This document shows positions 5,229-44,649 of a stretch of 44,649 nucleotides of DNA, piece after piece. The notes under the pieces were generated by a model, which saw only the letters and a list, made by a program, of their open reading frames with translations, was not told where the DNA came from and did not search any database. The position numbers and the translations under genes are program-made. The stretch is from a virus, in IMG/VR virus record IMGVR_UViG_3300009135_000004, positions 1 through 44,649 of that record; one strand, given 5' to 3'. Positions within the stretch are counted from its first letter, which is position 1; the number at the start of each line of letters is the position of its first letter.

Positions 5229-5849
5229 ATGGCCAAGAAAAAGCAAAAAGAACTTCGTGCGACGGACCACCAATGGACTTTTGCAAGTGATTACGTGCGG
5301 AATCGGTCCATGTTGTCGGCTTTTGAGGCCGCGTACCCGAAGCACGGGCCGAAGCCAATGCACCGCAAGCGGTCGATGGCCAAGCGAATCTTCGCACAAA
5401 AGGGGACTCAGTTAGCCATTAAGGAGCTGACTGAGGATGTCCGCCGTGCAGAGAAGCTGACCGTCGAGAGCCACATGGCCAAGCTTGGCGAGATTGGCGA
5501 AGCGGCTTACAAGGACGGCAAGTGGACTGCGGCCCTGAAAGCGGAAGAGCTTCGCGGTAAGTGTGCTGGGTTCTACGTCGAGCGGTCGATGAACGTGTCG
5601 GTGACCACCTCGGTAGACCAGATCAAGTCTCAGATGGAAGCTCTTCTGGAACAACATCCTCAGATGGCTCAGGTGATGGGAGTGGAACCCCCAAGGATTC
5701 TAATAGATCGTCAAGCACATGAGACGGAAGTGGTATCCGTGGAGTCTCTGGAACCTTCAGATCAATCGGATCAATCGTATAGTCAGCCAGAGACAGGCGA
5801 AGATACGGATATTCCGGAGTCCGACTCAGAGACGTGGTCCACAGACTGA
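5229..5849 (+). CDS. terS: Terminase small subunit (Terminase_2-like)
   Basis: Pattern ...F.SDYV...S...AFEAAYP...A.RIF....TQLAIKEL...KLTVESHMAKLGEI...AALKAEELRGKCAGFYVER matches the small-terminase HTH plus oligomerisation layout. It is the lone plus-strand gene inside minus-strand blocks. Confidence 0.65.
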   Translation: MAKKKQKELRATDHQWTFASDYVRNRSMLSAFEAAYPKHGPKPMHRKRSMAKRIFAQKGTQLAIKELTEDVRRAEKLTVESHMAKLGEIGEAAYKDGKWTAALKAEELRGKCAGFYVERSMNVSVTTSVDQIKSQMEALLEQHPQMAQVMGVEPPRILIDRQAHETEVVSVESLEPSDQSDQSYSQPETGEDTDIPESDSETWSTD

Positions 5850-6402
5850 CTGCGATGCCCGCGATGATGTTGCTGGTGAACAGCACGCTACGGGCGGTGC
5901 AGGGCTCGGGGTGAGCTTCCTCATTGGAGAAGAGGGTTGTCTTGTACTTCTCGTAGCCGTCGTTCTCGTCGTTGACAAAGTACGCCTGAGCATTCAGCCC
6001 TGACATACGGGTGTCAATGATGGGTACGGACTCTTCCTTGCACAGGCCAAAGAGGTCTTGCCGGGCGGTCATGCAGTCTACGCAGGCGAAGACAGCGGTG
6101 TAGTCCGAGATGCGAAAGCCGGGGCCGAACTTCTTGTTGTGGGCGTAGATGTGCATTTCGGGGTTAATGGCGAGCATGTCGGATTCAGTCGCCTCTACCT
6201 TGGGGAGCCGAAGTTGGTCGGGCCGGTAGCCCTGTGCTCCCATGTTGACTTCCTCGACCGTGTCGAAGTCGCATAGCTCGACGGAGCCAACGCCCATTGC
6301 AGCGAGCTGGAGGGCGACCTGACGGCCTATGGCTCCGACGCCGAGGACAAGGACATGGCTGTTGAGAAGCCTCTGAGGGCTAACCAGCCCCGAGTATCTC
6401 AT
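5623..6402 (-). CDS. ThiF/MoeB/E1-like Ubl-activating (adenylating) enzyme
   Basis: Rossmann motif VLVLGVGAIGRQVALQLAAMGVGSVELCDFDTVEEVNMGAQGY. Also INPEM...VFACVDCMTARQ and a later Cys (PEPCTARS). ATG at 6402 overlaps the JAB stop (ATGA). Upstream ATGs at 6432 and 6483 are alternatives. Confidence 0.8.
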   Translation of the reverse strand: MRYSGLVSPQRLLNSHVLVLGVGAIGRQVALQLAAMGVGSVELCDFDTVEEVNMGAQGYRPDQLRLPKVEATESDMLAINPEMHIYAHNKKFGPGFRISDYTAVFACVDCMTARQDLFGLCKEESVPIIDTRMSGLNAQAYFVNDENDGYEKYKTTLFSNEEAHPEPCTARSVLFTSNIIAGIAVSLWTTSLSRTPEYPYLRLSLADYTIDPIDLKVPETPRIPLPSHVLDDLLESLGVPLPSPEPSEDVVPEELPSET

Positions 6403-7757
6403 GTAACGTTCGCTTCGTGATCCTTCTGACATTGATCGTACTCTTCTTTCTGTTCTTGGAATGTGGTAATAAACGCTTTGCACGCATCATCGAGGTCTTT
6501 CCCATATTCGGGAAAATGGATCGAAGTGGATATAAGCATGGAGTAGGCCGTCTCCCGGTCAATCGGGGCGGAGCTTGTGAGCAAATCAGGCAAGTCCTTG
6601 GCAGGGCTGGGCTCCTCGGTGAAGAACCAGTCCTTTTTCTTCTGGTCGTACTTGATGTACTTGGTAACCTCGTCAGAGCCGTTCTTGGCCTGATCCGCAT
6701 TGATGTCACCGTCTCGTAAGGCGGCGATGAGAGCGATTGGGTCCCACCACATGGCGATGTCCGTGTCGTAGTTGTCGAACTCGGTGGGTTCGCCAATCAG
6801 CCCGTCAGAGACCTTCTCGACCAGCTTCCGGACCTTCTCCTCGTCGCGGGTGTCGAGGATATTGTGATAGCACTTCTGGAGTGCCAGCATGGTCCGCATT
6901 GGGCCGTGACTCATGATGTCGGTGAAGCTGGGGCTCCAGTCCTCAATCGAAGCGTAGTACGGACTGCCGGGCAACCCTTTAAGACCAAGGTTTAAGCCAG
7001 CCCAAGTGGGCTTGTCGATACTGCCCCAGAAAGGCAAGTCGAGGATAGGCTTTTTTCGCTTTTTTGCCTTCTGAGTGGTCCCACCTCCCATCATTTGGTA
7101 GCCACTGTACTTGGTGGTCGTCGTGTAGCCGGTGGTCTGGTAGGTCTTCTTCTTGATGTTGTCGAGTTCTGTCGTCCACTCATCAGGGATGGCCGTGGGC
7201 TCGATCTCGACAGTAAGATTCATCATCTGGTCCTTGACTCGGAAGACGCAGACGAACTCGTTGCTGGTTCCGAGGATGAGCATGACGCCCCATGGCATAC
7301 TGCCCATGGCTTCCTCGAAGGTGTCCCAGTCCGTGCTGCTGGGTGATGCAGACTGGCCGGGGTGAGTGTGAGCCCAGACGCGAGCGAAGGACTCGGGGCT
7401 GAGCCCGGCCTCCATTTGGTCCTGCACCCACTCATTTTGCGCGTCTGTATCGAAGTCCGTGTTTACCGCCGTGCATTCCTGCGGGAGGAAGACAAAGTCG
7501 GTGATGAACAAGGGATCATCCGGGTGAGAGATGCCCATGGCTCCGACTTCGGTATCTTTCTTGTCGCGGAACCATACGAGCTTCTTGTACGCGGTAGAGG
7601 AAAGGATAAGAGCTGACCGATTCAGTTCAGAAGCTCTCCGTGACCGGGTCAGCTGTCGCAGCTTCCTCTTGACTGCTGTCTTCTTCGGTTTCGCCTTCAC
7701 TGGCGTCACCATCTTCGGCTTGGATTGCTTGGTTGAGATCGTCTGGGGTGAATGCAA
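6399..7757 (-). CDS. JAB/MPN+ (JAMM) metalloprotease with a roughly 250-aa uncharacterised C-terminal extension
   Basis: Complete JAMM signature: E (DTEVGAMG) ... H-T-H-PGQSASP-S-ST-D at 7329..7370. The start is TTG 7757 or ATG 7712, and both overlap the E2-like gene. Confidence 0.8.
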   Translation of the reverse strand: MHSPQTISTKQSKPKMVTPVKAKPKKTAVKRKLRQLTRSRRASELNRSALILSSTAYKKLVWFRDKKDTEVGAMGISHPDDPLFITDFVFLPQECTAVNTDFDTDAQNEWVQDQMEAGLSPESFARVWAHTHPGQSASPSSTDWDTFEEAMGSMPWGVMLILGTSNEFVCVFRVKDQMMNLTVEIEPTAIPDEWTTELDNIKKKTYQTTGYTTTTKYSGYQMMGGGTTQKAKKRKKPILDLPFWGSIDKPTWAGLNLGLKGLPGSPYYASIEDWSPSFTDIMSHGPMRTMLALQKCYHNILDTRDEEKVRKLVEKVSDGLIGEPTEFDNYDTDIAMWWDPIALIAALRDGDINADQAKNGSDEVTKYIKYDQKKKDWFFTEEPSPAKDLPDLLTSSAPIDRETAYSMLISTSIHFPEYGKDLDDACKAFITTFQEQKEEYDQCQKDHEANVT

Positions 7758-8835
7758 TGGCGTGCTCCGTGGAGTAAGGGGTGTAAGCGGCGGTCATTTC
7801 AGCGTCCGAACCGTTGAACGCGGGAGAGATATTGATGCCCGAGGCCTCGGCTCTTGCGGTCCAGCTTTCGCCGGGCATGAAGATTCGATTTAAGAGTTGA
7901 TAGAAGTCTGGGTTTTCATCCTCAAGAGTCGAGCTGCCTGTGATGAGGTTGGGCAGATAGGCTTTGAGGTTTTGGCTCAGCCAGTCTCGAATGTATCGGT
8001 GTCCGTTCCGCAGGATGCGTTCACATTCGCGTGGCAGAAGGCGAATCTTGTAGCCGTCAACCTGAAGGACCACAAGGTCTTCGTCGGACCAGTCCTTGGG
8101 GACGCATTCGTAGTAGATTTGGGGATGTGCGAACAGCTCGGCTTCCATCACCGGCATCTCGATGGGCGATATGGAACCGGGGAACTTTTGGTTGAAGTGC
8201 TCAAAGGGGCTGACGGGGTTGTAGGTCTTCAGGATTTCCTCGAAGACACACACGAGGCTGTAGAGGTCACCTGCGGCCTTGAGATTGAAGTAGGTATCTT
8301 CTTCCGTGCCGAGGCACACTTCCCCGCCCTGACTGATATGCGGGTGTCGTATTCTCTTCCAGCGTTCATAAAGAGGGCTTGCTATGACTGTGTCGTAGTC
8401 GCATCGCTCCCACAGGTCAACCACACGGAAGGTGCTGTTTCTTGGGCGGACAAAGTAGGGTCCAGACCGGACGGCCCGCCCCAGCTCCTCGTCCACCCAG
8501 TAAGTCGCGGGGAGGTAGACAGCCGCGTTCCCGCCAACGCTGACCAGCTTGAAGTTCTGGGCAACTTCGACGACTCGCTTCAGGTCTTGCGTTGGCCAGT
8601 TACGAAAGAGTTCCTCTCGTCGGTTTTTAAGAAGGATGTCATGTTGGGCAAGCTCACGCTCGGCAAGGCGTCTGAGCATAGAGGGCGGGATAGGGTCGCA
8701 GTAGTAAGCGAGCTGGTGGACGTTTGCTTTGGTGACCGGGATTTCGTTTAAGGCGGCACGGTCGAGGTCCGCGATTGAGGACCGTTCGATTGGCCCTTGT
8801 GGGTATGTACGTCGAGGTGGTGAGAAGGTTTGCAT
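7627..8835 (-). CDS. E2/UBC-like Ubl-conjugating protein with N- and C-terminal extensions
   Basis: Active-site-like HPHISQGGEVCLG (Cys codon 8314..8316) followed by ...ILKTYNPVSPF, resembling the UBC HPN...G.ICL...P..P layout. ATG at 8835 is preceded by AAGGAG with 5-nt spacing. GTG 8898 (GTGA-coupled to the Ubl stop) is an alternative start. Confidence 0.65.
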   Translation of the reverse strand: MQTFSPPRRTYPQGPIERSSIADLDRAALNEIPVTKANVHQLAYYCDPIPPSMLRRLAERELAQHDILLKNRREELFRNWPTQDLKRVVEVAQNFKLVSVGGNAAVYLPATYWVDEELGRAVRSGPYFVRPRNSTFRVVDLWERCDYDTVIASPLYERWKRIRHPHISQGGEVCLGTEEDTYFNLKAAGDLYSLVCVFEEILKTYNPVSPFEHFNQKFPGSISPIEMPVMEAELFAHPQIYYECVPKDWSDEDLVVLQVDGYKIRLLPRECERILRNGHRYIRDWLSQNLKAYLPNLITGSSTLEDENPDFYQLLNRIFMPGESWTARAEASGINISPAFNGSDAEMTAAYTPYSTEHAIAFTPDDLNQAIQAEDGDASEGETEEDSSQEEAATADPVTESF

Positions 8836-8856
8836 GGGGTCTCCTTGAGTAGAGGT

Positions 8857-8888
8857 AAAAAAGACGGGCGATTTTGAGGCCGCCCGTC
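8857..8888 (-). terminator. Hairpin plus T6: intrinsic terminator or attenuator between the Ubl gene and the enzyme genes
   Basis: Minus strand: GACGGGCG-gcctcaaaat-CGCCCGTC-TTTTTT, starting 7 nt after the Ubl stop. Confidence 0.5.
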
Positions 8889-8894
8889 CCTGAA

Positions 8895-9116
8895 TCACGC
8901 ACCCTTGATCTGGGATGGGACGAGAGAGACGATGTCGCCCTCGGTCAGCGCGGCTTCGAGATCAGCCGCTTGGCGGTTGACCTTGACTACGGCGTTCTCC
9001 GGGACGCCGCCTTGGGTTTCGAGGAACGCACCAACAGTGGTTTCACTGGTGACGGGAACCTCAACCATTGGCTCTTGGCCGAAGGTGTTGGAGAACTTAA
9101 CGGTGATACGAGACAT
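8895..9116 (-). CDS. Ubiquitin-like beta-grasp protein (ThiS/MoaD-like), 73 aa, C-terminus ...IKGA
   Basis: Size and pattern fit ThiS/MoaD/Ub-type proteins: ITVKF....E..VEV....TVGAFL......VKVNRQ.......L.EGDIVSLVP....G-A. AAGGAG lies 6 nt upstream of the ATG. Confidence 0.7.
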   Translation of the reverse strand: MSRITVKFSNTFGQEPMVEVPVTSETTVGAFLETQGGVPENAVVKVNRQAADLEAALTEGDIVSLVPSQIKGA

Positions 9117-32467: not shown

Positions 32468-32916
32468 TGGCATTAAGCTCACTTTTCATAGCCAGTTCAG
32501 TCGCGTCTATCGCCGGAGCAGGACTTGCGGCTGCTGGGCAGTACCAGTCAAACAAGACGCAGGAGGCGGTTGCCAGCCAAAACGCCATTACTGCCGAGTT
32601 GACGGCGAATGCTGAGGCCAGCCGTCAGGAGCGGGTTGACGCACGGGCTCTCGCTTCCGCTCAGGCCGCGATGGGAGCCTCTGGCGTGCTTGCCAGCTCT
32701 GGCTCATCTCTATCTGTCCTCTCGGACATGGCGGCACAGCAGGCTGAGAACGTCCTCCAGATTCGATACGGCGGACAGGTGCAGTCTGCCAACGCGAGGA
32801 ACCGGGCGACAGCCTATGGCCAGAAGGCGACGGGAGCCTTGATCGGCGGCGGGGCTAAGGTCGCTGGTGGGGTGGCCAGTGCAGCGTACACTTACAAGAA
32901 CACTTGGGGCGCTTAA
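32467..32916 (+). CDS. Internal virion protein B-like (T7 gp14 position)
   Basis: 149 aa. Hydrophobic, Ala/Gly-rich N- and C-termini. Position in the gp13-16 series. Confidence 0.45.
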   Translation: MALSSLFIASSVASIAGAGLAAAGQYQSNKTQEAVASQNAITAELTANAEASRQERVDARALASAQAAMGASGVLASSGSSLSVLSDMAAQQAENVLQIRYGGQVQSANARNRATAYGQKATGALIGGGAKVAGGVASAAYTYKNTWGA

Positions 32917-32920
32917 TCGG

Positions 32921-35900
32921 ATGAGCAGAATCAATACTCGAATCCTTCGTGTTCCCGGCGTCTCCGGGCAGATCGACGAGCGGCCCATGGGCTCGTTCAT
33001 GGCTCCTATGGAGGCGGCTGGCGAAGCCCTTGCCGACCTTGGCGACCTCGGCCAGCAGATCGCGGTCAAGGAGCAGGGGCTTCAAGACCGCATCTTGGCC
33101 AGCGATCTTGAGTCAGAGCTTCGAGAGTCCTCGATGCGAGCAAATGAGGCCGCAGCTAACGCGAAGTCAATCGAAGAGCTCGACGGCATTCAACGTGGCT
33201 TTGATGCTGACTTTGAATCCATCCAGCAGCGGGCTGACGGTATTCAGGGTGAAGAGGGAAAAGCGAACTTTGCCAATCGCGCTTCTCTGCTTGGAGGCAG
33301 GACCGCTCTTGGCTTGACTTCGCTAAAAGTCAATGCTGAAGTCTCCAAGGCGAAGCTGCAACGCAAGGACGAGGCGGGGCGGCTTCTTGCTGAAGGTATG
33401 TCAAGTGGCGACATCGACGGAGCGATTGCTCAGGTTGAGGCTCTTTACGAGGGCGGCGTCGGCACGCTTGACAGCGAGTGGGATGATATTGATGCCGAAA
33501 TTACAAGCATCGTGGGTGGGGCTCAGCACACAAACTGGCAGATCAAAGTGGACGAGGGGGAGGTTGGCGCAAAGGAGGTGCTGTCGGCCAAGCACCTGAC
33601 CGAGGGGGCTCGCCGGTCGCTTCTCAGTCAAATCGCAGGGAGAAAAGGCCGCGAGGAAGGCCTGGCTGAACGGCAGGCACTATCGGACATCTCGAATAAG
33701 GTCACGTTGCTTCCAGACCATCCGGACGGCATTCCCGCAGGTTTGGAGTCGTTGCGGGCAGAGCTTACTGAGTTCTACGGAGACGGGGCTCCTGAAGTCC
33801 AGATTGCCTACCAGCAAGCGGTGGAGTCTGCATATACAGAGCTTCTGGATCGGTCGGCATCTATTCCCGACGTCGCTGATCGTGAAGATAGCCTTGATAG
33901 TCTTGAGGGTGAGATTCGGCTTGCAAGTGAGGGCTCGCAGACTGGTGCGGAGAAAAAGGTCTATGACCGAGCGTTGCTTGGCATCCAGCAGCTCAGGTAT
34001 CAGATGGTTCGCACCACCGAAAAAGACCGGGCCGAGCAGCTCAAGCAGATGCACGACCAAATCAACCTCGGCATTATGGAAGCGAAGGTCAACGGCTATC
34101 TCAAGGCAGATGGCACGCAGATGGATGCGAAAGAGTTTGAGGACATGATGCTTCGTGCCGCAGGAATCGAGGGTCTCGATGCGAATGGGGCTTGGGATTC
34201 GGATAATAAGATTGTTCGAGAGAACTTCATCTCCGCGAAGGAATTGATCCTCCGGCAAAAGCTGGCTTACAAGGAGATGACCAGAACCCCCTTCGAGCGG
34301 ACATACGAGGCTGCGCTCGCGGGCGATATCAGAGCAATGGATTCTCTTTCGATGCAGGCGTGGCTTGGTGCTAGTGATGACGAGGCGTTTGAAGAATCAC
34401 TCGCTTCTGGCGAAAAGGATTCCGCCTACGGCAAGGTGATTCACGCATCGGCAAAGACTGGCGTTGCCCCATCCCACATCCGCGACTGGGTTTTGTCTCA
34501 CGACAATATGGCCGAGGCCGCTCGTAAATGGCTGGCCCAGCCCGACCGTGGATTTTTGCATTTTGATAAGGGTGGCTTGGATGAAAAGGATGCTATCAAG
34601 CTCCATGATTTTACCAGAGCTACTCTTGCAGTTCGTTCAGGCAGCGTTTCCATGGAAGATATTGACGGCCTATTTTCAGACAAGGAAGAGTCTCGGGTGG
34701 CTATTGGGGAGTCTGCGAGAGCGGAGCTTGAGAAAGATGATCTTCGCAACTTCTTGAAGAACTGGCGAGAGGGACTCCTTGAGAAGTCAGACTTTTCTCG
34801 CCGGAAAGAAGTTGGGGACGAAAAGGCGTACTTGGAGGAGATGGCCTCCAAGCTTGTCAGTGACGGGTTTTTCAAGACGGAGGACGAAGCCGCCGTCGCT
34901 ATCGCCAACGGCAAGAGCCGGGATATGGAAAATATGGCGATGCTGTTTTTGCAAAAACCCGGCAACGAGGCGGGGCTTGCCGCCTTCCTTGGTGAAAGCA
35001 CTGATCCTGTCGGGTGGGAGATTGCGAACTCTGCTTTTAGAGCTGCTGCGGGTGCTGTGTTTGGTAATCAGGGCCATAACTACTTCACCCCTCGGAGCCC
35101 GGGCGAGTACCGCCCGACGGACTTCTCCCCACCTACGGCCTATGGCTTGGTAAGCGGGCGAGGAAAGAGCCCGGCTATCAATCTGGCTAAGTCTGACAAA
35201 GCGGTGATGGAAGGGTCTTCGGCGTGGACGCCTGTCATGGTTGATCTCTATGACGCCATTAGGGAGGCCTATCCCGGTGCAATCGAGGACGACGTTCAGT
35301 GGACAAAGATTTTTGGCAAGGAAAATGCGAAGGGTGCTGATGCTCTTAGGGATGTGATTCGGAGTGCAGATGGCGCAAGAACCTTTTCGACGGAAGAGTC
35401 AATGGTTGCTGGGTGGATTCAGTCGAACGACTTCAAATCAAAGACTCCTCGTGAGATTAAAGCTACCATCGCTCACAAGCACGAGCAGCTCCCCTCTGAG
35501 AAGTTAAGGTGGGGCTCTCGGATGAAGCTCCCTCCCGAATCGTCTGTGAATGCCGGATCGTTGATGCGATTAATTAAATCGGGTATGGTTACAATATCCA
35601 AAGGCCCGATCGCTAACGAGCAAGAGACTCGCGTATGGAATGAGGGTGTGGACCGGCTTCGCCCAGCAGGTTACAAAGTTGATAACTCGGACTTCGTTTA
35701 CAAGGTTCGGTTTACTATTCAGACCTCCAGCGGGCCTGTTGTAATCGACCGGATGCCGTCCCCCATGAACCTGATATACGATGCACGGGCCTCTCAGGAG
35801 TCGGGTATATACATGAAGGAAATTGGCCCTGATTATCGGAAGAAGGGGCTTGACGTTGTAGGTACGATGCCGGGCAAAACCTATCGCAGCAAGAAGGCGA

Positions 35901-36049
35901 GCGATAGCCCCCGTGATTACCCTGAAGAACAGTCGGCTCTTGACATTGCCCAAGATTATTTGAATCGAACGGGGTCTGGGAAGACTTCGATCTGGGGCGA
36001 GAGTAAAAATGAAGGCCTTGTGCCTTACAGGAGACTGGACAATGAGTAG
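32921..36049 (+). CDS. Internal virion (core) protein C-like (T7 gp15 position), 1042 aa
   Basis: Large helical protein in the gp15 slot. Start set to ATG 32921, just after the upstream stop. Confidence 0.5.
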   Translation: MSRINTRILRVPGVSGQIDERPMGSFMAPMEAAGEALADLGDLGQQIAVKEQGLQDRILASDLESELRESSMRANEAAANAKSIEELDGIQRGFDADFESIQQRADGIQGEEGKANFANRASLLGGRTALGLTSLKVNAEVSKAKLQRKDEAGRLLAEGMSSGDIDGAIAQVEALYEGGVGTLDSEWDDIDAEITSIVGGAQHTNWQIKVDEGEVGAKEVLSAKHLTEGARRSLLSQIAGRKGREEGLAERQALSDISNKVTLLPDHPDGIPAGLESLRAELTEFYGDGAPEVQIAYQQAVESAYTELLDRSASIPDVADREDSLDSLEGEIRLASEGSQTGAEKKVYDRALLGIQQLRYQMVRTTEKDRAEQLKQMHDQINLGIMEAKVNGYLKADGTQMDAKEFEDMMLRAAGIEGLDANGAWDSDNKIVRENFISAKELILRQKLAYKEMTRTPFERTYEAALAGDIRAMDSLSMQAWLGASDDEAFEESLASGEKDSAYGKVIHASAKTGVAPSHIRDWVLSHDNMAEAARKWLAQPDRGFLHFDKGGLDEKDAIKLHDFTRATLAVRSGSVSMEDIDGLFSDKEESRVAIGESARAELEKDDLRNFLKNWREGLLEKSDFSRRKEVGDEKAYLEEMASKLVSDGFFKTEDEAAVAIANGKSRDMENMAMLFLQKPGNEAGLAAFLGESTDPVGWEIANSAFRAAAGAVFGNQGHNYFTPRSPGEYRPTDFSPPTAYGLVSGRGKSPAINLAKSDKAVMEGSSAWTPVMVDLYDAIREAYPGAIEDDVQWTKIFGKENAKGADALRDVIRSADGARTFSTEESMVAGWIQSNDFKSKTPREIKATIAHKHEQLPSEKLRWGSRMKLPPESSVNAGSLMRLIKSGMVTISKGPIANEQETRVWNEGVDRLRPAGYKVDNSDFVYKVRFTIQTSSGPVVIDRMPSPMNLIYDARASQESGIYMKEIGPDYRKKGLDVVGTMPGKTYRSKKASDSPRDYPEEQSALDIAQDYLNRTGSGKTSIWGESKNEGLVPYRRLDNE

Positions 36050-44366: not shown

Positions 44367-44649
44367 TTACCGGCTGTCATCGTGACCCTTAGCCTCGCAA
44401 TCCTCGCAGTAGTACGGGCTGGGCGGCACGCACCTGTCGAACTCGGTTGGGCCTCCGCAGCCGGGGCAGGATAGGGGGTCTTGATCCTTGAGTTGGGCGA
44501 GGGCGGCATCCCTTTCAGCGGCGAACGCACACTGATCCTGCTCGCTACATTCACATGTTCGCTTTATATCTTGTAGCCGCCTCACTTCTTCCTCAAGCTC
44601 GGCGATGCGGGCGGCTTGCTCTAAAAATGCGTCAGCAAGCGGGATGTAA
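44367..44649 (-). CDS. C-terminal part of the wrap-around small protein (see 1..178); Cys-rich zinc-ribbon-like tail
   Basis: In frame with 1..178 across the circle. ...RTCECSEQDQC...AALAQLKDQDPLSCPGCGG...CEDCEAKG. Bases 44573-44649 duplicate 1-77. Confidence 0.6.
   Translation of the reverse strand, partial: YIPLADAFLEQAARIAELEEEVRRLQDIKRTCECSEQDQCAFAAERDAALAQLKDQDPLSCPGCGGPTEFDRCVPPSPYYCEDCEAKGHDDSR
44573..44649. repeat. Second copy of the 77-nt terminal overlap
   Basis: Identical to bases 1-77. Confidence 0.9.

Follow-up and report, generated by a model that had tools for sequence, protein, structure and literature searches.

A phage-borne Ubl-E2-JAB-E1 gene cassette and the ubiquitin-like protein-conjugation pathway that it may encode

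The window analysed here is IMG/VR virus record IMGVR_UViG_3300009135_000004 at its full length of 44,649 nucleotides, and the system in question is a cassette of four open reading frames (ORFs) that lie back to back on its minus strand (5623-9116), in the order Ubl (encoding a ubiquitin-like protein), E2 (encoding a protein resembling ubiquitin-conjugating enzymes), JAB (encoding a putative JAMM-type peptidase) and E1 (encoding an enzyme of the ubiquitin-activating type). An earlier reading of this DNA, made from its letters alone (hereafter the original prediction), had proposed a complete ubiquitin-like conjugation cassette carried by a phage. All four ORFs were found where it had placed them and the motifs it quoted were re-derived at exactly the same positions. 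The genes are:

8895 to 9116, minus strand: Ubl gene, encoding a 73-residue ThiS/SAMP-like beta-grasp protein (Pfam ThiS and PDB profile matches).
7627 to 8835, minus strand: E2-like gene, encoding 402 residues with a putative UBC-type core (PDB profile, hhalign and an AlphaFold2 (AF2) model).
6399 to 7757, minus strand: JAB gene, encoding 452 residues from a TTG at 7757, with an alternative ATG at 7712 (Pfam Prok-JAB and PADLOC JAB models).
5623 to 6432, minus strand: E1 gene, encoding 269 residues from an ATG at 6432, or 259 residues from an ATG at 6402 (Pfam ThiF).

The E1 protein has a single ThiF domain covering residues 10-195 (Pfam ThiF, E=5.7e-32), with a glycine-rich ATP loop (GVGAIGRQ, 6319-6342), Asp109 within CVDCM and a candidate catalytic residue, Cys168, within PEPCTAR (5890-5910; Cys codon 5899-5901). 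Residues G21-G26, D109 and C168 were invariant among the homologues, which are 225-267 residues long and all share an N-terminal RYSG where they reach it. In a comparison of a profile of five phage E1s with the PDB, the best matches were UBA7, ThiF, MoeB, UBA5 and UBA6 (E 1e-17 to 1e-15), and the UBA7 alignment paired PePCtaR with P-VCTVR, putting Cys168 on the Cys of VCTVR; the catalytic Cys of UBA7 we take to be C599. In canonical E1s a motif of the VCTVR type holds the catalytic Cys (C632 in hUBA1; PMC12355090). The protein has no second adenylation domain, inserted Cys domain or ubiquitin-fold domain (UFD) and by this architecture can be placed in the 'minimal' class with MoeB and UBA5; its C-terminal tail is variable, proline- and acidic-rich and disordered-looking. 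It shows the features that define the E1/ThiF/MoeB adenylating enzymes, and the original assignment to this group, including the downstream Cys, is borne out by the Pfam match and by the relatives in the PDB. The coupling of E1 to JAB through an ATGA, also put forward originally, needs revision: the overlap exists (6399-6402), but the more likely start of E1 is the ATG at 6432, from which the protein reads MSEGSRSERYMRYSG. Since this matches the N-termini of the homologues, which begin MSE..R..R(F/Y)(L/M)RYSG, the overlap between E1 and JAB probably measures 34 nucleotides and is not an ATGA.

The Ubl matched Pfam ThiS with E=1.7e-4, exactly at the Pfam cut-off, and the profile of its family matched archaeal SAMP2 (5lda, the SAMP2-JAMM1 complex; E=1e-3) and PF1061 (E=1.6e-3) in the PDB, in agreement with the beta-grasp assignment made earlier. 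Its ATG is preceded by AAGGAG. For the mechanism the protein appears most informative through its C-terminus, PSQIKG72-A73 (SQIKGA* at 8895-8915; Gly72 codon 8901-8903, Ala73 codon 8898-8900), of which Q(I/V)KGA was invariant in the 6 sequences of the window-clade alignment. In the alignments with ThiS and SAMP2, Gly72 pairs with the terminal glycine of these proteins, and Gly72 is predicted to be the mature, activated residue and Ala73 a one-residue pro-peptide. More distant phage and cellular Ubls keep the K-G, followed by A, GV, AQQ, A plus 9 or A plus 18 residues. A conserved Gly with a short tail, of 1-19 residues in the distant homologues, is also the sequence feature of the Ubls of the bacterial Bil systems (BilABCD).

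In the JAB protein the motif HTHPGQSASPSSTD (7329-7370) corresponds to H130-T-H132-x7-S140-x2-D143, with the JAMM Glu70 within TEVGAM (7548-7550). The complete JAMM motif that had been read from the sequence (E...HxHx7Sx2D) was invariant in an alignment of 13 sequences (A4, 42-89% identity), eleven homologues having been found at 41-88% identity, and the zinc site is that of the JAMM/MPN+ proteins. The match to Pfam Prok-JAB (E=5.5e-5) scored 23.5 bits, just below the cut-off of 25; seven PADLOC JAB models match, and the profile matched AMSH-LP and RPN11 weakly in the PDB (E 0.45-0.7). The protein consists of a basic N-terminal tail, a JAB domain (residues ~45-175) and a C-terminal extension of ~280 residues, which is conserved in the clade and gave no match to known families. 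Automatic gene calls in several databases place the start at Met74. The 30 residues ahead of it, including the JAMM Glu, are kept in the homologues that reach that far, which puts the start upstream of Met74; the candidate TTG at 7757 has a GGAG 9 nucleotides upstream. The 5' end of JAB overlaps the 3' end of E2, encoding the acidic E2 tail, in another frame. As a side observation, between 7627 and 7757 the 5' end of JAB encodes the basic tail KPKKTAVKRKLRQLTRSRR, which is kept in one relative (L001, see below) too, and the apparent dual coding of JAB and E2 amounts to 86-130 nucleotides, as set by the true JAB start.

The E2-like protein required more sensitive searches. As a single sequence it had no match in Pfam, PADLOC, PHROGs or the PDB (phmmer), and a word-indexed search found only two homologues, while 35 proteins came out when 1.8 billion cluster representatives were searched exhaustively with a profile: ten full-length relatives and ~23 distant ones that have only a block of 60-100 residues in common, HPH(I/V)xxxGx(V/I)C(L/W)G ... 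D ... LxxYNxxSP(Y/F). Apart from one marginal UQ_con match, the proteins with this block belong to no Pfam family. In the window, the E2 ORF (ATG 8835, a start that agrees with the homologues, to 7627) contains HPHISQGGEVCLG and YNPVSPF; the motif HPHISQGGEVC lies at 8314-8346 (His164-Pro-His166 at 8338-8346, Cys174 codon 8314-8316) and YNPVSPF at 8203-8223. Residues H164, H166, C174, G176, Y205 and P210 were invariant in an alignment of 27 sequences (15-43% identity) of distant representatives, from which profile A3 was made. When A3 was compared with all PDB sequences, the ten best matches were all ubiquitin-conjugating enzymes, with UBE2A/Rad6 types leading (E=0.002), and in the alignment the HPN motif, the Cys of the active site and the helix cap LLxxPNPxSP were all paired. 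Likewise, hhalign of A3 with UbcH5B gave a probability of 90.3% and E=1.5e-6 over HPN/Cys/PNPxxP.

AlphaFold with an alignment of 3 sequences reached a predicted local distance difference test score (pLDDT) of only 46 for the E2-like protein; with the alignment of 27 sequences the AF2 model had a pLDDT of 87.5 and a predicted template modelling score of 0.81. In this model residues 85-217 form a helix, a beta-meander, the HPH loop, the Cys and two helices, which is the UBC order. In all, the protein has an N-terminal helical region, a UBC-type core (~85-217), a C-terminal region specific to its lineage and, last, an acidic tail. The elements by which the UBC/E2 superfamily is recognised (an HPN-type motif, a Cys 7-10 residues downstream, (P)NPxxP and the order of the elements) can all be pointed out, and the E2/UBC signature seen originally was recovered by both profile comparisons, although no library model matches. 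In our view the active-site half of the domain is well supported as E2, and the UBC fold is probable. The best Foldseek match in BFVD was one viral protein (probability 0.96). A side observation concerns a protein of 3688 residues in the representative library (P0025), of which five separate stretches match the E2 active-site block (E=4.9e-7); its sole Pfam match is AbrB_C.

The genes of the cassette overlap or are tightly spaced, as in an operon. Promoter-like and terminator-like signals on the minus strand between 5 and 10.5 kb did not exceed the counts expected by chance, and layout and signals together are compatible with a single transcription unit. The GC content of the cassette equals that of the rest of the genome.

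The window itself is the genome of a phage. Positions 1-77 and 44573-44649 form an exact direct repeat of 77 bp (unique length ~44,572 bp), which indicates a closed (complete) genome or a terminal repeat, and among the products of the plus-strand half are a large terminase, a portal of the T7 type, a scaffold/protease, a major head protein, tail tube B, an internal virion protein and tail-fibre N-termini of the T7 type, in line with the closed podovirus-like genome that had been proposed. The cassette is part of a minus-strand block with genes for a YqaJ exonuclease and a Rad52-type annealase. The original prediction had added that the phage looks lytic. This stands in so far as the larger non-structural ORFs of the window include no recognisable integrase and the JAB profile A4 found no copy, and thus no prophage copy, in 185,579 reference genomes (GTDB), all of which is negative evidence. 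A tRNA scan of the window found none, and in spite of the T7-like structural genes the window products scanned contained no recognisable DNA polymerase, RNA polymerase, primase or helicase. Beyond YqaJ and Rad52 the non-structural half encodes mostly proteins that match no family, for instance one of 1060 residues (32867-36049).

The same cassette was found in the same place in eight relatives, from at least six independent assemblies and four data sources, in a conserved order of a block of small ORFs, Ubl-E2-JAB-E1, an ORF on the opposite strand and YqaJ-Rad52-SSB:

L001: ENA assembly, 35.9 kb, with terminase.
L002 and L006: ENA assembly and ENA contig.
L003: NCBI metagenome record, 27 kb, with T7 tail genes.
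L004, L005 and L007: Logan assemblies.
L010: IMG/VR genome, 39.9 kb, the only IMG/VR locus found with JAB profile A4.

This synteny in independently assembled relatives (ENA, NCBI, Logan and IMG/VR) shows that the cassette is carried by the phage, and it contradicts a chimeric join with host DNA, the finding that would have undone the original claim. In L007 the identity to the window is 70% for the large terminase, 49% for YqaJ, 45% for Rad52, 51% for Ubl, 46% for E1, 39% for JAB and 25% for E2. As the identities of cassette and other genes fall in parallel, a chimeric join can be dismissed and a long vertical residence of the cassette is indicated; by these figures E2 appears to be its fastest-evolving gene. 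No relatives that lack the cassette were found with YqaJ queries.

That the cassette might be misassembled host DNA, or a decaying acquisition devoid of function, had to be considered since the sequence is metagenomic and E1 and JAB have their closest cellular relatives in genomes of Planctomycetota. Against this stand the repeated finding of the same position across assemblies, the uniform GC content, the intact reading frames, the invariant catalytic residues and distance trees (neighbour-joining, rough), in which the window-type E1 and E2 form a clade of their own and are not nested among the cellular copies. We therefore give an artefact or a passenger hardly any credence.

Some further observations were made on the surroundings of the cassette. 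The relatives of the window also carry SSB and DUF1064. A gene of the homing-endonuclease type (NUMOD4 and HNH_3) lies directly upstream of Ubl in L004 (1261-1806) and L005 (1192-1737), and is absent from the window and L003. The other neighbour is fixed in all relatives:

5229 to 5849, plus strand: ORF of 206 residues on the strand opposite to the cassette, overlapping the 3' end of E1 and conserved in relatives.

This ORF converges on E1, the 3' ends overlapping by ~227 nucleotides (5623-5849), and the same convergent overlap was found in L001 (ORF list) and in L002, L006 and L007 (gene calls). Its homologues are 59-69% identical in L001-L003, L006 and L010, and 38% identical in L007. The overlapping tails of both proteins are variable, proline- and acidic-rich. 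The ORF had no Pfam or PHROG match; a guess by eye that it encodes a small terminase received no support from either, and the name was dropped.

Far more diverged Ubl-E2-JAB-E1 cassettes were found in three other types of phage-like contigs, in the order small Ubl, E2, JAB (HSHx7SGTD) and ThiF, with an E2 that shares little beyond the motif block:

L008 and L009: diverged cassette adjoining genes for a small terminase of the Sf6 type and a portal of the T7 type.
L066 and L067: diverged cassette adjoining genes for a D5-type primase and an SNF2 helicase.
L063: diverged cassette adjoining a Peptidase_M15_3 gene, of the kind that phages use as endolysins.

To judge from these sequences, the cassette is a recurrent phage module and not a one-off.

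Among 50,697 deposited phage genomes no match was obtained by megablast of the region, or by tblastn of the window E2, the window JAB and a distant E2 (P0046). The window E1 did match ThiF-like genes (annotated 'thiamine biosynthesis protein') in the FpV phages of Flavobacterium and in crAss-like phages. In two of these, the cultured Flavobacterium phage FpV4 (KT876724, 59.9-68.5 kb; L069) and the crAss-like bajarodcaudo virus 1 from faeces (PQ006092; L068), the order is a protein of 254-290 residues, a protein of ~420 residues, a JAB gene and the ThiF gene, the last annotated 'thiamine biosynthesis protein' in the former and 'E1 enzyme family protein' in the latter. The first protein has an N-terminus that is Ubl-like by eye, ending K(I/V)KSG(A/G), the second has MHSH...C.G, and the JAB has HSHx7SGTD and a long C-terminal extension. 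This arrangement may be a homologous cassette. The 420-residue proteins could not be significantly aligned as E2 to A3 by hhalign (probability ~1%) and are a lead only; the FpV4 JAB gave no hhalign match to A4, though its JAMM motif is plain. If they are homologous, the cassettes of FpV4 and crAss-like phages in culture would make the question of function directly testable.

The larger protein with the Ubl-like N-terminus (by eye) upstream of JAB and ThiF would suggest a release that depends on cleavage, and thereby bears on another explanation, in which the Ubl would be put on, or cut off, proteins of the phage itself so as to time or help replication, recombination or virion assembly, as with TAPI/TAPK of lambda. 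That the cassette always adjoins YqaJ/Rad52/SSB would also fit. However, it occupies the early region, well away from the structural genes and on the strand opposite to theirs, TAPI/TAPK comes without E1 or E2, and no candidate substrate is evident, so that we consider such a self-directed function improbable.

The annotation of the ThiF-like genes in deposited phages would suit a different function, namely that of a sulfur carrier. The Ubl would then be of the ThiS/MoaD/TtuB type and be adenylated and thiocarboxylated by E1 for thio-modification of nucleic acids, tRNA or cofactors, JAB would mature it as Mec+ does CysO, and the Cys of the E2-like protein would be a persulfide relay. Ubl and E1 are indeed in the small size class of ThiS, ThiF and MoeB, and sulfur operons with ThiS, JAB and E1 are well documented (Iyer 2006, rows 4a-4e). 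Nevertheless, neither the cassette nor the neighbours scanned nor the genes called in the syntenic loci yielded a recognisable rhodanese, cysteine desulfurase, PP-loop ATPase, cysteine synthase or other biosynthetic partner; as third component the cassette has a UBC homologue with His-x-His...Cys...NPxSP, which is foreign to sulfur-carrier pathways, and the gene order and the Gly-Ala end of the pro-Ubl match those of conjugating Bil operons. Because an E2 homologue is present and a sulfur-transfer partner was not recognised, we regard the sulfur carrier as the weakest rival function, and a rather doubtful one.

An E1 profile search of one genome per GTDB species gave 50 cellular loci (L011-L060), almost all of them in Planctomycetota (Phycisphaerae, Pirellulales, Planctomycetaceae, Gemmatales and Tepidisphaerales). 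One is in the chromosome, a complete one, of Lacipirellula limnantheis I41 (NZ_CP036339, about 1.141-1.144 Mb; L047, locus 6089-8639), and about 30 others, a few of them from outside the Planctomycetota, also carry a related E2-JAB-E1 cassette. In most loci a JAB gene (35-50% identical, HTHPGxSxxPSxxD) precedes E1 (35-43% identical), and ahead of JAB is an E2-like protein with HPHVxxxxLCxG(D/E)...YNxxS(P/A) and a Cys-rich C-terminal domain. In the loci that were inspected or positive by tblastn, a Ubl of 73-100 residues ending K-I-(E/A)-G-A, sometimes with extra residues after it, comes first. The tails of the Ubls are alike (P-T-K-I-E-G-A in planctomycete islands, P-S-Q-I-K-G-A in the phage). 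The family of E2 proteins shared by the phages and the Planctomycetota islands is recognised by neither Pfam, PHROGs nor PADLOC. The C-terminal domain of the cellular E2 is full of CxxC pairs, possibly a zinc module resembling those of ubiquitin ligases (E3).

None of the phage genes of the window was found in the cellular loci. These loci are mobile islands: around the cassette they have recombinases of the tyrosine and serine types, GP88, DUF3150, DUF2997 together with an AAA ATPase, and occasionally Cas or PLD genes. In 5-8 of them, DUF2997, an AAA ATPase and a GHKL-like ATPase come after the cassette.

Since defence systems travel on such islands next to integrases, the related cassettes there would be in line with an explanation in which the phage carries a Bil-like defence as cargo: virion proteins of other phages would be tagged, to exclude superinfecting phages or to compete with rival phages, and the host would not be the target. 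The component set and gene order are those of BilABCD, and the fast-evolving C-terminal region of E2 fits an arms race. On the other hand, no integrase or other sign of lysogeny was found in the window and no prophage copy in the reference genomes, which would limit the benefit of exclusion to a short lytic cycle; the cassette occurs in every relative found and looks fixed, unlike a variable accessory island; and the architectures of E1 and E2 differ from those of BilD and BilB. Defence cargo thus seems unlikely to us.

The reading that we prefer is that the four genes constitute a working ubiquitin-like protein-conjugation pathway owned by the phage and expressed with its early and recombination genes, to which we assign a probability of roughly 65%. 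In this pathway, JAB would trim the C-terminal Ala73 from the 73-residue pro-Ubl and expose Gly72, which E1, probably as a homodimer like MoeB or UBA5, would adenylate and then take over as a thioester on Cys168 (PxCTxR). The Ubl would pass to Cys174 of E2 (in the HPH...C...YNPxSP core) and from there to lysines of target proteins. As there is no separate E3 gene, the lineage-specific, fast-evolving C-terminal region of E2 is the presumed selector of targets in place of an E3. JAB would also reverse the mark, and with its extension of ~280 residues it may bind the enzymes or the targets. The residues named are present and conserved; each chemical step we infer from sequence. The trimming of Ala73 is proposed on account of the conserved K-G-A and of Type II Bil, where the last two residues of BilA are Gly97-Ala98, of which the Ala is a steric block to ATP binding in E1, and BilC cuts after Gly97 (PMC10557695).

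Several points weigh against this reading. Only the active-site half of the domain, on which the assignment is founded, aligns by sequence; the Pfam models UQ_con and Prok-E2 do not match the protein, and the third residue of its HPN motif is His instead of Asn. Of the structural check that the original prediction had suggested, the model held up, with the UBC order of elements, and the search with it gave a weak result: Foldseek of the whole 402-residue model against the PDB put UBE2S on top with a poor score (E=1.6, target TM 0.44). The transfer from E1 to E2 is assumed, since E1 has no UFD or other known E2-docking domain. The Ala after the Gly is almost universal in the Ubls, so the mature end could instead be Gly-Ala, with Ala activated. 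No E3 or substrate gene could be identified. The early expression of the cassette is presumed from gene position alone, and the likely host phylum, Planctomycetota, from E1/JAB similarity only.

As for its role, the conjugation pathway would modify proteins of the host or of competing elements in phage-host conflict (take-over or counter-defence), possibly with cross-talk to the island cassettes of Planctomycetota. Our confidence in this role is low, but we judge it the most plausible one because the cassette lies among early and recombination genes and is fixed in the lineage, markers of lysogeny are lacking, the E2 tail evolves fast and the Ubl tails are nearly identical. A wider reading, which we hold only tentatively and somewhat short of even odds, is that several unrelated lineages of tailed phages (the T7-tailed clade, at least three other metagenomic types and possibly the FpV and crAss-like phages) carry a complete and active cascade that tags proteins of the host or of rival elements during lytic infection, as a virus-side counterpart of Bil and of the anti-phage signalling system that is based on cyclic oligonucleotides (CBASS). 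If that were true, viruses and mobile elements would be candidate vehicles in the early spread of the ubiquitin machinery.

What has been characterised of Ubl conjugation in bacteria up to now is host immunity, with Bil tagging phage tails and Cap2 priming CBASS. A cassette fixed in phage lineages with no signs of lysogeny would mean that phages employ this chemistry on their own side, as is routine for eukaryotic viruses. For phages, no description of a complete Ubl/E1/E2/JAB pathway was found in the literature searched, in agreement with the view that the arrangement had not been characterised in a phage; the nearest items were lone E1-like genes in Asgard viruses and the TAPI/TAPK pair of lambda. 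Its compactness (a Ubl of 73 and an E1 of 260 residues, and no E3) could make the system useful to probe the minimal needs of an E1-to-E2 relay.

Compared with known systems, the cassette is closest in layout to Type II BilABCD (CEHH/6C operons, Ensifer aridi; Chambers et al., PMC10557695), which has the same order (Ubl-E2-JAB-E1), no E3 gene and a single beta-grasp Ubl with a conserved Gly and a short tail (Gly97-Ala98, as against Gly72-Ala73 here). The JAB of Type II Bil pre-processes and deconjugates the Ubl, and by analogy the same is proposed for the phage JAB. However, BilD is a multidomain E1 (two adenylation domains, one inactive and one active, and a CYS domain inserted with Cys417), whereas the window E1 is one ThiF domain of ~260 residues, and BilB is an E2 of the CEHH kind, in which the Cys is followed by His, whereas the window E2 has His-Pro-His before it, as in classical E2s. 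Moreover, Bil is encoded by the host in defence islands and this cassette by a phage. Type I BilABCD (6d operons; Hör et al., 10.1101/2023.09.04.556158) likewise combines Ubl, E2, JAB and E1, has a C-terminal Gly and acts in phage-host conflict, but on the anti-phage side of the host; it differs in a BilA with two Ubl domains, an E2 in which the classical His is missing and a His stands C-terminal to the Cys instead, and a larger E1 (Cys385). Gene order and Ubl tail are therefore those of BilABCD, while the multidomain E1 and the Cys-then-His E2 are absent, and by its sequence features the cassette is not a BilABCD member. None of the operon classes 6a-6e (Iyer et al. 2006) has a classical E2 with His before Cys.

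Type II CBASS (Cap2/Cap3) shares the chemistry of E1, E2 and JAB, and PADLOC E1-E2 models matched residues 10-92 of the window E1 (E ~1e-10); the PADLOC matches listed were to CBASS-type E1-E2 and JAB models only. Cap2 is an E1-E2 fusion resembling Atg7/Atg3, and its 'Ubl' is the C-terminus of a cGAS/DncV-like nucleotidyltransferase (CD-NTase), whereas here E1 and E2 are separate and the Ubl is free-standing. Since there is no fusion and no CD-NTase, the cassette is not Cap2/Cap3; among ten neighbouring products scanned against Pfam, no nucleotidyltransferase or effector family was found. The comparison with Bil and CBASS made in the original prediction can thus be kept as an analogy (component set, gene order and a Gly-Ala Ubl end as in Type II BilA), but not as membership, given that E1 and E2 differ from BilD/BilB and Cap2.

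Archaeal sampylation (SAMP1-3, UbaA and HvJAMM1) and the ThiS/ThiF and MoaD/MoeB systems resemble the cassette in their small ThiS-like Ubl, compact E1 and JAMM partner. They differ in having no E2 and Gly-Gly Ubl ends, and many of them act in sulfur transfer together with biosynthetic genes; in contrast to a ThiS/MoaD sulfur-carrier operon, the cassette has an E2 homologue, and no such partner was recognised among its neighbours or in the syntenic loci. In phages, TAPI/TAPK of lambda and T1 (Iyer et al. 2006) were the earlier described Ubl and JAB genes; they come without E1 or E2, belong to the tail module, have JAB fused to NlpC/P60 and were proposed to serve processing, not conjugation. 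Eukaryote-like operons with Ub, E1, E2, RING and JAB were described in Caldiarchaeum and in a few bacteria, including Planctomycetes (PMC4197634), and these may be related to the Planctomycetota cassettes found here.

The active-site motifs resemble those of the eukaryotic enzymes. The E2 signature HP(N/H)-x(5-8)-C ... (P/Y)NPxSP aligns residue for residue between UBE2A or UBE2D and the window E2, and PxCTxR of the window E1 pairs with the catalytic-Cys motif of UBA7. The phage proteins differ from the eukaryotic ones in the absence of FCCH/SCCH, UFD and a pseudo-dimer from E1, and, in E2, in ~85 extra N-terminal and ~185 extra C-terminal residues and a His for the Asn in the third position of the motif. 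Nevertheless, the motifs of E1 (PxCTxR) and E2 (HPx...C...NPxSP) are closer to those of the canonical eukaryotic enzymes than are the motifs of the bacterial systems characterised so far, and as such they bear on the origin of the ubiquitin machinery.

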